From the NCBI GenBank assembly GCA_001792535.1, contig MGGS01000002.1, forward strand, positions 7,155 through 71,154: a stretch of DNA of 64,000 bases. Direction: 5' to 3'. Of this stretch, positions 16,616 through 21,506 are shown piece by piece (positions within the stretch are counted from its first letter, which is position 1; each line of letters opens with the position of its first letter). The translations under genes and the position numbers were made by a program. This DNA comes from Candidatus Woesebacteria bacterium RIFCSPHIGHO2_02_FULL_42_20 (GTDB lineage: Bacteria; Patescibacteriota; Microgenomatia; UBA8517). The notes under the pieces are model-generated. The model saw nothing but the letters and a program-made list of their open reading frames with translations. It was not told the DNA's origin and made no database searches.

Positions 16616-16855
16616 ATGCAGATTAAGTCAAAATTGGCTGCGTTTGCTGTGGTTATCTTCTGGTTATCGGTATTTGGGTTCTTAGCCTTTCACGATAGCC
16701 TTGAAAATTCCTGTCTGGAGGGAGAAACCAAAGCTTGCCTGCCGCCGGAATTTTTGCCAATTGTGATGGTCCTCATTTTTATTTCTTTCTTCTTTGTATT
16801 TTGGCTGTTTTTTTGGAAAGCGCGTGGGAATGCCTACCGACAAACATTATATTAG
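16616..16855 (+). CDS. possible small membrane protein (low confidence; overlaps 3' end of opposite-strand gene)
   Basis: 79 aa, two predicted TM helices; AAAGG abuts ATG. Confidence 0.25.
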   Translation: MQIKSKLAAFAVVIFWLSVFGFLAFHDSLENSCLEGETKACLPPEFLPIVMVLIFISFFFVFWLFFWKARGNAYRQTLY

Positions 16856-17486
16856 CTTCGGGATGAACAACTTGAACACTATCAAAAACCTTTTCAAGTT
16901 TTGTTAAAAATTTCATGGCTAAAGGTTTTTTTTCGCCATAATAAAGTCGATTAAAAATAGCGGTTCCTTTTGCTGACAAAACCTTTTTCACCAAGTTTAT
17001 AAACTTTGTAGTTTCAAATTTTTGAGGATAGTGGTCGCCGGTGTATAGATCAGTACAAACAAGGTCATAGTGACGGGTGACAGGTGACTGGTGACTCGTG
17101 AGAAATTCAAAAGCGTCATCAACAATTATATTTACGGCACAGTCTTCAAGTTTCAAATACTTCTTCCCAAGTCCTATCATAATCGGGTCGATATCTACCC
17201 CTGTGATTTTGGCGCGGGGAAAGTTTTTTCTGACCAATTTCGCAATTGTCCCCCCTCCCAATCCGAGGATCAGAACACTTTGGAAGTTTGGAAGTTTGGA
17301 AGTTTGGAGTTTTTTAAATGTGCTTTTCCACACCGCCTCTACAACTCCGCCGGACTGGGTGAGCCCCCCGGCTTGAATATGGGTTTTCCAGGCAAAGTCG
17401 TACTTAACTACAATATGCCCGTTAATCGGCGAGTCCGCCTCTTCCAAAATCCTCACCCCAGCCAAAAAATTCTGCAATTTCTCCAT
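16779..17486 (-). CDS. spermidine synthase-like class I SAM-dependent transferase (SpeE family-like)
   Basis: 235 aa; VLILGLGGGTIA (nucleotide-binding loop), KITGVDIDP, IIVDDAFEFL; contains in-frame 9-bp x3 tandem repeat. Confidence 0.6.
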   Translation of the reverse strand: MEKLQNFLAGVRILEEADSPINGHIVVKYDFAWKTHIQAGGLTQSGGVVEAVWKSTFKKLQTSKLPNFQSVLILGLGGGTIAKLVRKNFPRAKITGVDIDPIMIGLGKKYLKLEDCAVNIIVDDAFEFLTSHQSPVTRHYDLVCTDLYTGDHYPQKFETTKFINLVKKVLSAKGTAIFNRLYYGEKKPLAMKFLTKLEKVFDSVQVVHPEANIMFVGRHSHALSKKTAKIQRRKK

Positions 17487-17489
17487 CTA

Positions 17490-17927
17490 CTAATAATTAC
17501 CACCCTGAAAATACATTTTAGGAGTAATGACTTTTATCGGCTTAATAAATTTCTCAACTTTTTCATTCAAAAAGTGTTTTCTGTCCAATGTAAATAGACA
17601 ACCTGACTTTGATACTTTCGCTTGAGACAAAATAACTGCATCCTTTTTAACAATAACCATTTTTGCCTTTGAAATGTCTCTAACATTTGGTTCGATATCC
17701 AATATTATTAGTTTTTCAACTAGCCTGAAAAATCTACCAAGATGATAGCTTTCAAGTTTGTGTCTTACGTTTCTTTCAACTTCCGCCAGGACAACCTTCG
17801 AGGTGACTAACTTTAGTCCGCGGATTGTAAAAAGCTTCGATCACCCACCTGTTGGGGAATAGACAGCGGAAAATAGAACACTTGAATCAAGAAAAGCGAT
17901 TTTTAAAGCTCGTCTTCTTTTAGCCAT
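17490..17927 (-). pseudogene. PIN-domain (VapC-like) toxin gene interrupted by an in-frame TGA at codon 29
   Basis: ATG at 17927 overlaps antitoxin 3' end; MAKRRRALKIAFLDSSVLFSAVYSPTGG-TGA(17843-17841)-SKLF...CLFTLDRKHF; both halves are PIN-like (N-terminal FLDSSVL, C-terminal TLDRKHF) in the same frame. Confidence 0.55.
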
Positions 17928-18166
17928 TCTTTAATCTCGGAATTGGGAAAAATACGGGTATATTTGGAAAGCCTTGGGTCGATATAAGTTTTACCAAAAA
18001 CTTTTGCCACAGCCTTTCGCAGTCTGTCCAAATAATTTATGTCAACAATGGCAGCTTTAGCATTGCCTCCCTTTGTCAATATAAAATATTTCTCGCCCGA
18101 GACTTTCTCTGCTAATTCCCCCAGTATGCTTCTTGCCTTGGTGACAGGAATGATATTCATAACCAA
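17903..18166 (-). CDS. Phd/YefM-family antitoxin
   Basis: 87 aa; IPVTKARSILGELAEKVSGEKYFILTKGGNAKAAIVD matches Phd/YefM N-terminal fold; a PIN ORF follows with overlap. Confidence 0.7.
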   Translation of the reverse strand: MVMNIIPVTKARSILGELAEKVSGEKYFILTKGGNAKAAIVDINYLDRLRKAVAKVFGKTYIDPRLSKYTRIFPNSEIKEWLKEDEL

Positions 18167-18246
18167 ACTTTAACAATATAAATGTACAATGTCAATAATA
18201 GCGTAACAAAAAATGTACATGTTATAATACCACCCATAAATCAAAA

Positions 18247-19284
18247 ATGTCAGTTACCGAAACCGAACAGCAAATTTGGGGCAGATTACTTACTGTTAGT
18301 CCACGAGGATTTCTACAATGGAAAGAAGACATTTATCCAGGATTTGATGCGAGAAACGTCCCGGAAAGATTTGTTTATTTGACTGGTGGTCTAGCTGCAT
18401 TTGATGAGTACGAATTTGACTTTGCGCCTGCAAAATTAAAGCATGAAGGCCAAAACGAATTCACCACTAAAGAAAAAGAAACAGATATTAGAGGACTTTT
18501 TAGAACTTTGGATTTGTTTCAAATAGAATTTACAGAACCTAGAGAAATTTTATTAGTCGGGTCGTACAACCAGGACGGGTTGTTTTTGACTATCGGATTG
18601 TGCAAAAAAAAAGGGTGGAACGGGTCCCACATAACGCTAGTTGATCAATCAGATACTGTTTTGTCGCTACTAAGTGTAATGGGGGAAAATGGTTACTACG
18701 ACTGGCAAGCTGGAGTAACCCTCATAAAATCGGATATTACTGATTACAAACCTAAAGTTCAACCCGATATTGTTTTCGGAGATATATTGAATACCTGGAT
18801 GACTAGAGAATATAGCTGTCCAAGTTCAGCATCGGCAAAGTCACCATATAATGATTTCGAAGCATACCTAAGATATACAGCAACTAACATCAAACCCAAC
18901 GGATGGTTTTTCTCCAGATGTATGATTTTTCCAGACGATCAACAAAGTTTTGCTGCAAATAGACGGTCAACTTCTAATGTTGGTAATAGAGTCGACACTG
19001 TTTTAAATCGAATCGGAACACATTTTGAAGAGGTCGACAAACAGGCTCTCTCTGAAAACCTTGATGAGTTGTTTATTAACACACACACCACATCTTATTG
19101 TGGATTATCTTTGCTTCGACCACTTTATAAACCTTTTTCGACTCTAACCGGCCCGCATGCTGAGGAGGTATTTATCAGATTACATAATCGCAATTTCAAC
19201 GTAGTTCACAGAATAAAAGTTACACATCCCGAATCCGGCTTTGTTTTTCTAAACTTTGCTTGCCAGGGGAGAAAAACCCCTTAA
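18247..19284 (+). CDS. hypothetical protein (possible Rossmann-fold methyltransferase-like)
   Basis: 345-aa ORF; TATAAT ~18224-18229 upstream; no family recognised with confidence. Confidence 0.5.
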   Translation: MSVTETEQQIWGRLLTVSPRGFLQWKEDIYPGFDARNVPERFVYLTGGLAAFDEYEFDFAPAKLKHEGQNEFTTKEKETDIRGLFRTLDLFQIEFTEPREILLVGSYNQDGLFLTIGLCKKKGWNGSHITLVDQSDTVLSLLSVMGENGYYDWQAGVTLIKSDITDYKPKVQPDIVFGDILNTWMTREYSCPSSASAKSPYNDFEAYLRYTATNIKPNGWFFSRCMIFPDDQQSFAANRRSTSNVGNRVDTVLNRIGTHFEEVDKQALSENLDELFINTHTTSYCGLSLLRPLYKPFSTLTGPHAEEVFIRLHNRNFNVVHRIKVTHPESGFVFLNFACQGRKTP

Positions 19285-19350: not shown

Positions 19351-20541
19351 ATGGCACAGCCACTGGCGGAAAAGTTAAGGCCCAACACTTTGGCTGATTT
19401 TGTCGGCCAAGAGCATTTGGTTGGTAAAAATGGGATTGTTAGAAAATTACTAACTAACCAACTGACCAATAACTATTTTCCGTCTCTGATTTTCTGGGGA
19501 CCGCCGGGGTCGGGCAAAACTACACTGGCCAGAATCGTCGCCAGTAAACTCAAGCGCGAGTTCTTCGAATTTTCCGCGGTAAACACCTCGGCTCGCGATA
19601 TAGAGAAAATAATCAAAAGCAACAGTCCAAAAACTATGAACTATGAACTAATAACCAAGAACTCTCCTATTGTCTTTATCGACGAAATCCACAGGTTCAA
19701 TAAAGCCCAGCAGGATAAACTCCTTCCTCATGTTGAACGTGGGAACATAATTCTAATCGGCGCGACAACCGAAAACCCGTCGTTTGAAGTCATCGGCCCA
19801 CTTTTATCTCGCACTAGAGTACTCGTTCTTAAAAGGTTGGAAGACAAGGAACTTGAAATTATTTTTAAGAAAGCGGTCAAATATTTAAAAATCAAAGTAG
19901 AGCCAAAGGCAAAAAGATTCTTAACCGACTCCTCAAACGGCGACGCGCGAGTTTTACTCAACGTCCTTGAAATTGCCAGCAACATCACTAAACACCATAC
20001 ACTAGTCACTAAACACGTCGAGGTTGCTTTGCAACGAAGACAACTAACTTTCGACCGCCGAGGCGAAGAATTCTACAATACGATAAGCGCATTTATTAAA
20101 AGTATGCGCGCTTCAAATGTTGATGCTGCACTTTATTACTTAGCCCGAATGGTTGAAGCCGGCCAAGACCCACTCTATATCGCCCGGCGAATGGTAGTAT
20201 TTGCCTCCGAAGATGTAGCCTCTCCTACCGCTTTGGTTGTTGCCAATGCAGTATTCCAAGCATGTCAGCAAATTGGTTACCCAGAGTGTCAGGAAAATTT
20301 AGCCGCAGGGGCAATCTATTTGGCAACAGCAAAAAAGGACAGGTCGGCTTATGACGCGTATATGAAAGCTTTGGGAGACGTCAAGAAAAATGGTAACCTG
20401 CCCATCCCGATGCAAATTTTGAATGCACCAACAAAGCTGATGAAAGTATTGGGCTATGGCAAAAGTTACGATAAATACACCAAAGAATCGTTACTACCAG
20501 AGAAGCTTAAAAACAAGAGATATTACCAAAAATCACTATGA
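19351..20541 (+). CDS. rarA: replication-associated recombination protein A (AAA+ RarA/MgsA)
   Basis: 396 aa; LAEKLRPNTLADFVGQEHL, Walker A GPPGSGKTTLA, Walker B VFIDEIHRFNKAQQD. Confidence 0.9.
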   Translation: MAQPLAEKLRPNTLADFVGQEHLVGKNGIVRKLLTNQLTNNYFPSLIFWGPPGSGKTTLARIVASKLKREFFEFSAVNTSARDIEKIIKSNSPKTMNYELITKNSPIVFIDEIHRFNKAQQDKLLPHVERGNIILIGATTENPSFEVIGPLLSRTRVLVLKRLEDKELEIIFKKAVKYLKIKVEPKAKRFLTDSSNGDARVLLNVLEIASNITKHHTLVTKHVEVALQRRQLTFDRRGEEFYNTISAFIKSMRASNVDAALYYLARMVEAGQDPLYIARRMVVFASEDVASPTALVVANAVFQACQQIGYPECQENLAAGAIYLATAKKDRSAYDAYMKALGDVKKNGNLPIPMQILNAPTKLMKVLGYGKSYDKYTKESLLPEKLKNKRYYQKSL

Positions 20542-21506
20542 AACTTAAAAAGCAAGCTACCATTGAAGTTAAGCCTACTTCTCCATTTAATTTTGATGCT
20601 ACATTCCATAAACCAGACCACTTTACCAGCGGGGATAACTACTGGGAAAAAGGAATAAGGTGGCAAACTTGGTTGTGGCAGAAAAAACCTCTAGGTTTAA
20701 AATTCAAAAATAACGGAAGTGTAAACAAACCACGTATCGATGTATCAATACATTACAACAAGATACTTTCTCAAAAATTTATAGACTTTTTAGTTGATGA
20801 AATAAAATACAGATACAATTTAGAACTTGAATTATCAGATTTCTACAAAAAATTTGAGGAAGATAAGGTTTTTAAACCAATTATTGAGAAATTATACGGA
20901 ATGAGACCAGGACACCCAAGTTCACTGTATGAATACCTAATAATCGGAATTGTTTTACAAAATGCAACAGTAAAAAGGTCGGTTCAAATGTTTAGAGCCT
21001 TACTTGAAAACTATGGTACAAAACTAGAGTATGACGGAAAGAGGCTTTGGTGTTTCTGGAAAGAGGGTGGGTTGTCAAAAACAACTGAACCGGAACTTAG
21101 AGATTTGAAAGTGGGTTATAGAGCCAAATCAATCAAAAAGACTGACGATTATTTTGCCCAGGGCGCGATTAACGAAATGGATTTAAGAAAAAAAGACAGA
21201 GAAACACAAATGACTGAGCTTTTAAAACTTTATGGAGTCGGACCTGCAACGGTGTGGTATTTACTTTTTGACGTCTTTCACCATTGGGACTTTTTCAATC
21301 ATGTTTCCCCTTGGGAGCAAAAAATCTACTCCAAAGTTTTCTTTAACAAAGATCCGGAAAACCCTGTGTCGGTTAAAAAACTACTCAAGCATTTTGGAAA
21401 ATTCGGCAAGTATAAACAACTAGCAGTTCACTACGTCTGGGAAGATCTATGGTGGACCCGTAAAAACAAACAAATCCCTTGGCTTGAGAAACTTATTCGA
21501 ACATAA
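20538..21506 (+). CDS. HhH-GPD superfamily DNA glycosylase-like protein (AlkA/Ogg-like), tentative
   Basis: 322 aa; helix-hairpin-helix LKLYGVGPATVWYLL; start overlaps rarA stop (ATGA). Confidence 0.45.
   Translation: MKLKKQATIEVKPTSPFNFDATFHKPDHFTSGDNYWEKGIRWQTWLWQKKPLGLKFKNNGSVNKPRIDVSIHYNKILSQKFIDFLVDEIKYRYNLELELSDFYKKFEEDKVFKPIIEKLYGMRPGHPSSLYEYLIIGIVLQNATVKRSVQMFRALLENYGTKLEYDGKRLWCFWKEGGLSKTTEPELRDLKVGYRAKSIKKTDDYFAQGAINEMDLRKKDRETQMTELLKLYGVGPATVWYLLFDVFHHWDFFNHVSPWEQKIYSKVFFNKDPENPVSVKKLLKHFGKFGKYKQLAVHYVWEDLWWTRKNKQIPWLEKLIRT

Follow-up and report, generated by a model that had tools for sequence, protein, structure and literature searches.

Organization of the locus

The locus lies in a stretch of 64,000 nt, referred to here as the window, and its genes are read from the minus strand (Table 1). 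A gene for a Phd/YefM-like antitoxin is followed by the frame of a VapC-type PIN toxin, and the 3' end of the former overlaps the ATG of the latter by 25 nt. Directly after the double TAG at the end of the toxin frame stands the ATG of a spermidine-synthase-like methyltransferase gene. No terminator-like site was found in positions 17300–18400, a range that included the junction between toxin and methyltransferase. A sister species had a matching synteny, consisting of RarA, antitoxin, PIN, methyltransferase and SecA. According to the neighbourhood and the database names, the source population is Candidatus Woesebacteria in groundwater metagenomes.

Table 1. Features of the antitoxin-toxin locus (window coordinates)
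Feature	Positions	Strand	Remarks
345-aa ORF	18247–19284	plus	between the antitoxin and RarA/MgsA genes
Distal operator-like box CATGTACATT	18212..18221	minus	perfect palindrome ATGTACAT at 18220–18213
Middle box GTTACG	18202..18207	minus	just upstream of the -35
Candidate promoter	18167..18195	minus	-35 TTGACA 18195–18190; 17-nt spacer with TGn; -10 TAAAGT 18172–18167
Proximal copy ATTGTACATT	18181..18190	minus	in the -35/-10 spacer; TGTACA 18188–18183
Phd/YefM-like antitoxin gene, 85 aa	18160–17903	minus	ATG 18160, TAA 17905–17903; intact
VapC-type PIN toxin frame	17927–17490	minus	ATG 17927, TAG 17492–17490; second TAG 17489–17487
Toxin gene, first part	17841..17927	minus	28 codons from the ATG, then premature TGA 17843–17841
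Segregating SNP	17842	minus	gene-strand G = TGA stop (window); C = TCA, Ser29 (intact toxin)
Toxin gene, untranslated remainder	17490..17840	minus	codons 30–145, same frame
Spermidine-synthase-like methyltransferase gene	16779..17486	minus	Pfam PF01564 at 3.9e-12; downstream context
Ns in JGI contig L012	19884, 18363, 17842, 16649, 16648, 16590		contig positions 1277, 2798, 3319, 4512, 4513, 4571, in this order

The start codon of the methyltransferase gene follows the toxin stop immediately, so that its translation may feel the premature stop within the toxin. This gene also matched the PADLOC model 'mad2' (E 7.4e-13) over the methyltransferase core, which is probably a generic SAM-methyltransferase similarity.

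The 345-aa ORF on the other side of the antitoxin gene was absent from the syntenic locus of the sister species. It had no match in Pfam, NCBIfam or PADLOC besides a chance-level one to PRMT5. In NCBI GCA_001792075.1 the same ORF carried a 2-nt deletion at window positions 19079–19080, and 293 aa were called.

A single nonsense codon in the toxin frame

The toxin frame from 17927 to 17487 reads MAKRRRALKIAFLDSSVLFSAVYSPTGG, then the TGA, and then SKLFTIRGL...QGGNY and the two TAG codons. The TGA was the only one in frame, and it was not accompanied by a frameshift: 116 codons continued beyond it, in the unshifted frame, up to the TAG TAG. A single frame aligned the sequences on both flanks of the stop to 288 homologues. 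Among intact orthologues the best, from the sister species, was 81% identical across all 145 residues. The two-sided alignment and the full-length orthologue together excluded a chance ORF boundary. The frame, the Pfam matches and the homologue alignment thus bore out what the earlier note had described, a Phd/YefM-PIN module with a single nonsense codon and no frameshift. Gene callers reported just fragments of 56 or 70 aa from the broken toxin.

The homologue search gave 288 relatives, and residues were counted in the 120 that were aligned. At position 29, where Trp or Gly had been expected by the earlier note, there was Ser in 119 of these and Ala in 1. The corresponding codon of the sister species was TCA, which a single C-to-G transversion converts to TGA. 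The Ser consensus and the TCA of the sister species indicated that the ancestral codon was Ser and was made TGA by one C-to-G change.

The read-through toxin scored 33.3 bits against Pfam PIN (PF01850; gathering score, 23.6), and its match to TIGR00305 was below the cutoff. PADLOC had nothing for the toxin or the antitoxin. A sequence search of the PDB with the toxin gave no match at E up to 1, and a search by fold was therefore needed. The AlphaFold model of the intact allele, based on the 120-sequence alignment, had a pLDDT of 91 and a pTM of 0.84. Its best PDB matches in Foldseek were VapC/PIN toxins (probability 1.0, TM 0.57–0.67), which included PAE0151, M. tuberculosis VapBC, the VapCs of Salmonella, Shigella and Rickettsia, and FitB.

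The acidic residues of the active site were conserved. Asp14, Glu51 and Asp96 were found in 120 of the 120 homologues and Asp115 in 119, and all four are encoded in the window frame. The toxins of this subfamily share the invariant motif FLDSSVLF-A-SP-GGS. The subfamily is divergent, uncharacterised and widespread in Patescibacteria contigs.

Of the four acidic residues only Asp14 precedes the stop; Glu51, Asp96 and Asp115 lie beyond it. The first elements of the model were beta1 (residues 9–13), alpha1 (15–23) and alpha2 (28–34). Placed on the model, the 28 residues of the stop allele would cover only beta1 and alpha1 with Asp14 and would lack three of the four catalytic acidic residues. A full-length uninterrupted frame was absent from the window and present in ten other contigs, described below. 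The toxin gene of the window is a predicted pseudogene allele of a member of the VapC/PIN family.

Genetic code and the Trp29 database entry

Among the 49 long ORFs in the window, TAA was the stop codon of 26, TGA of 16 and TAG of 7. Under table 11 no long gene apart from the toxin was interrupted, and the 911-aa SecA was among those read without a break. The window uses the standard genetic code. An alternative code (table 4 or 25) does not fit a window in which TGA terminates 16 of the 49 long ORFs.

A selenoprotein was not indicated either. The 71 nt that surround and follow the UGA folded no better than shuffled sequences (z = +1.05), giving no SECIS-like structure, and the relatives had Ser or Ala at the position, never Cys, Sec, Trp or Gly. 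With Rfam, the locus had no matches above chance level (E up to 10). In the whole 64-kb window there were no Rfam families at gathering scores, and ARAGORN found no tRNA or tmRNA.

The best database match of the toxin, P0001, was 99% identical and had Trp at position 29. It was the only full-length protein with Trp29 in the databases. The source contig (L001; ENA ERZ4902948 k141_190331, 746 nt; gene at 43–480) reads TGA at this codon, and its DNA fails to translate to P0001 under table 11. P0001 was therefore rejected as a TGG sense allele. Most likely, its Trp29 came from a gene caller that applied a table with UGA as Trp to a short contig. The entry is a cautionary case for databases, as a check on sequence only could mistake it for evidence of recoding.

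Two alleles in the population

Ten contigs (L015–L024), approximately 99.1–99.97% identical to the window, had C for G at 17842. They encode an intact toxin of 145 aa (P0121; NCBI OGM74236.1), which is the read-through protein of the window with Ser29 and belongs to the P0001 cluster. This SNP was the only difference between the window and these contigs in the toxin-antitoxin region. In L021 and L023 it was the sole difference from the window over the contig, and L015, L017, L022 and L024 had one more.

The TGA was present in L001, L008–L011, L013, L014, L025–L033 and L039, from more than 12 different ENA and NCBI samples. Exact-pattern DNA scans for the flanks of the codon found nothing in the JGI metagenome or the GTDB species-representative collections, which evidently do not include this species. 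The alleles were therefore sampled by exact-protein look-ups. All DNA read from the contigs that share the antitoxin or the methyltransferase of the window had TGA, and nine further TGA contigs were retrieved through the 56-aa fragment of the broken toxin. Truncated calls of 70 aa were found in four NCBI records (EKD57232.1, OGM14141.1, OGM29627.1 and OGM35604.1).

Products of the broken toxin were on approximately 36 contigs (23 + 7 + 5 + 1), many of them long, and the intact product on 8–10 contigs, mostly short. The toxin-null allele is thus the commoner one among the assemblies by contig counts, which are not to be read as allele frequencies, because several collections contain assemblies of the same samples.

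One JGI contig (L012; JGI 3300002105) had N at 17842 plus five other Ns in 6.3 kb. Three of the other five (18363, 16649 and 16648) were SNP sites in other contigs, which with 17842 makes four of the six. The Ns seem to mark polymorphism within the sample and not poor sequence. Because they coincide with SNP sites, both alleles were probably present in this one sample.

Two read-derived members of the P0001 cluster, of the source type 'SRC', had rearranged ends. P0122 had Ser29 and missed the final 24 or so toxin residues; its tail matched the start of the downstream methyltransferase gene, out of frame, which suggested a deletion. P0123 matched the sister species in its N-terminal half and the window species in its C-terminal half, and this suggested a recombinant or an assembly chimera.

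The antitoxin

The antitoxin matched Pfam PF02604 (PhdYeFM_antitox) over its N-terminal 50 residues with an E value of 3.5e-5; its 23.9 bits fell short of the gathering score (29.8). The match to the NCBIfam family phd_fam (TIGR01552) was weak (13.8 vs a cutoff of 20.8). The protein was identical in the contigs with the stop allele and those with the intact allele. Look-up of the exact protein gave 82 index blocks, and the cluster table gave 50 contigs.

Orthologous antitoxins were found upstream of a PIN gene in the sister species (L002) and in L034, L035 and L037. The latter three are distant relatives, in which the same antitoxin-PIN pairing stood in unrelated genomic contexts. Against PF02604 the match was confident for L037, weak for L034 and L035, and faint for the sister species.

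A short contig, L039 (ENA ERZ978281, 652 nt), corresponded to window positions 17673–18324 and had the TGA allele with two extra transversions. One changed the toxin start from ATG to AGG, which at the same time replaced a Trp conserved in relatives in the antitoxin (W79G), and the other gave T68S in the antitoxin. In this single short contig, the changes were either further decay on a null background or low-coverage errors.

Promoter and operator-like boxes

A consensus scan upstream of the antitoxin gene gave a candidate promoter with 10 of 12 matches, and the antitoxin ATG was 6 nt past the -10. The same geometry of -35, -10 and ATG was repeated in L002, L034, L035 and L037, with the ATG 6–9 nt after the -10 throughout. 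The toxins of L034, L035 and L037 are only about 60% identical to that of the window. The short distance from the -10 to the ATG suggested a leaderless mRNA for this toxin-antitoxin subfamily.

GTAC-type boxes flanked the conserved -35 in the five promoters, of which only the distal and the middle ones were conserved. The distal box was kept as (A/C)(T/G)GTACATTTTT in L002 and L034 and was degenerate (GATTACATT) in L035. The middle box, which the earlier note had overlooked, followed the consensus [GT][TG]TAC[AG]-N-AATACTTGACA in all five aligned promoters. Both lay within a block, GTACATTTTT-[CT][GT][GT]TAC[AG]-N-AATAC-TTGACATT, that was conserved in upstream regions that could not otherwise be aligned. 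The proximal copy was at a similar position in L037; unrelated sequence stood in its place in L002 and L034.

The motif AATGTACA occurred at 18181–18188 and 18212–18219, and the core common to both copies was AAATGTACA. The 8-mer was not enriched in the window (2 found vs 1.76 expected), and its sole notable aspect was that the two copies stood together in a single intergenic region of 80 bp. The earlier note had proposed two copies as antitoxin operators. Its position for the first was one base off, and that copy reads AATGTACAATG, not AATGTACAAG. The idea is plausible for the distal copy, which is conserved in relatives, and unsupported for the proximal one, which is absent in the sister species. 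The TGTACA pair was rejected as a proven operator, since the 8-mer was not enriched and the proximal copy not conserved. The distal and middle boxes are plausible candidate operators, and autoregulation, if it occurs here, would act through these GTAC boxes.

Age of the nonsense allele

In comparison with the sister species, the dN/dS of the toxin was 0.099, and its parts on either side of the stop gave similar values; that of the antitoxin was 0.048. These low values indicated that purifying selection acted on both genes during almost the whole of the divergence. The remainder of the toxin past the stop was 100% identical between the two alleles. From the dN/dS and this identity, the inactivation appears to be very recent.

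The SNP at 18363 and a linked triple SNP in the methyltransferase gene (17302/17301/17298) each occurred with TGA and with TCA, and every one of the four combinations of stop SNP and flanking SNPs was present. This may reflect recombination in the population or mosaic consensus assembly. As both are possible, the age of the allele is uncertain.

Elsewhere in the window, contig L011 (ENA ERZ4903072) had all of its 149 differences within approximately 630 nt (20500–21130), inside a 322-aa ORF (20538–21506), and its remaining 5.6 kb were identical to the window. The divergent stretch has the appearance of a recombination tract or of a change of strain within the assembly.

Discussion

We interpreted the toxin gene as VapC-like and as carrying a nonsense mutation (Ser29, TCA to TGA) that is recent and still segregating, with the antitoxin retained, at a probability of about 0.88. 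The module would be a chromosomal type II system, with a Phd/YefM-like antitoxin and a VapC-type PIN ribonuclease as the toxin. The C-to-G transversion at codon 29 would end translation after 28 residues, and a product of this length would have no PIN fold and no nuclease, with the loss of toxicity. The conserved promoter presumably still drives the intact antitoxin gene, the expression of which would continue. Chromosomes that differ only in having TCA, and thereby an intact toxin, would coexist with those of the null allele in the same aquifer community. Toxin-null mutations are tolerated, and antitoxin-null mutations are lethal while the toxin works; loss of the toxin would be the usual first step of toxin-antitoxin decay.

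The earlier note had left the choice between inactivation, recoding and a sequencing error, and only inactivation agreed with the results. In the case of an error, the true codon would be sense and the TGA an artefact of one assembly. Single-base differences are indeed typical of assemblers, and L012 has N at this very base. However, the identical TGA recurred in independent assemblies of more than 12 samples by several assemblers (k141 and k127 MEGAHIT-style contigs, ANAN16 scaffolds, NCBI MAGs and an ACD-series record), the alternative base was always C in ten other contigs, and the N of L012 came together with Ns at known SNP sites, as expected from polymorphism. An error was therefore rejected, its probability being negligible. 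Recoding, with UGA read as Trp (code 4), Gly (code 25) or selenocysteine, would yield a full-length toxin; some CPR lineages reassign UGA, and P0001 shows Trp at position 29. On the other hand, TGA is a normal stop in the window, the contig of P0001 itself reads TGA, the homologues have Ser or Ala, the alternative allele is TCA, and neither a SECIS-like fold nor an Rfam match was found. Recoding was rejected on these grounds and is barely credible. It is also very improbable that the fragments are functional, either as the 28-aa N-terminal peptide or as a product of 56–70 aa re-initiated at TTG 17702 or ATG 17660, even though gene callers report ORFs of 56 and 70 aa. In frame, no start codon occurs until 46 codons past the stop, a C-terminal fragment would be without Asp14, Glu51 and, according to the model, roughly half the PIN core (beta1, beta2 and alpha1–alpha4), and the 120 homologues listed, 132–166 aa in length, include none so short.

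UGA is the leakiest stop codon in bacteria, and rare near-cognate read-through could supply a trickle of Trp29 toxin, which would make the allele an attenuated one with a reduced dose. The gene shows no damage past the stop and stays in frame, and the allele, a common one, occurs on several SNP backgrounds. An undamaged remainder is, however, equally expected for a very recent null mutation. Read-through would also insert Trp at a position that is Ser in 119 of 120 relatives, and a U comes directly after the stop; in E. coli, UGA-U terminates translation comparatively efficiently, which may not hold in CPR bacteria. In addition, L039, a single contig, has TGA and has also lost the toxin start, as if selection were gone. 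We consider attenuation decidedly unlikely. It is unlikely as well that the null and intact alleles are kept by selection, or that the UGA is a leaky switch that reduces the dose. The hints for this were that the null allele is on several SNP backgrounds, that it is the main allele in many samples and the intact one in others, and that it is in both the ACD and the RIFCSP data sets, which we take to have been collected years apart. A selective trade-off may be involved, between phage defence or dormancy by VapC and its cost in an episymbiont with a tiny genome.

As in the VapBC systems (the VapCs of Shigella and Salmonella, those of M. tuberculosis, and PAE0151 and PAE2754 of Pyrobaculum), the toxin has the PIN fold with four acidic residues, and its small gene is immediately downstream of a small antitoxin gene and overlaps it. 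The palindromic boxes at the candidate promoter are also as would be expected for autoregulation. Unlike these, the toxin of the window is truncated at codon 29, has only 12–20% sequence similarity to the characterised VapCs and no solved relative by sequence, and carries an invariant motif of its own. The antitoxin resembles the Phd/YefM family (Phd-Doc and YefM-YoeB) in its N-terminal part, with the sub-gathering score given above, and differs from it in having a PIN protein as the partner, and not Doc or YoeB. Mix-and-match pairing is known for VapB antitoxins. By analogy, the module would work like VapBC with a VapB of the Phd/YefM type.

Inactivation of the toxin by point mutation with retention of the antitoxin is a textbook route of toxin-antitoxin decay. 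A survey of Klebsiella pneumoniae found abundant orphan antitoxins and proposed degrading toxin-antitoxin pairs as one source of them (Horesh et al. 2020, PMC7192599). The window resembles such loci in that an intact antitoxin adjoins a non-functional toxin. It differs in showing the first step, a lone nonsense SNP, with the intact allele in the same uncultivated population.

Since the route of decay is known, the finding carries little weight for general biology. It would provide a clean natural example from the CPR, in which a null allele and its intact parent, one base apart, segregate in one uncultivated population, and the dynamics of the two alleles could be followed in read sets that already exist.
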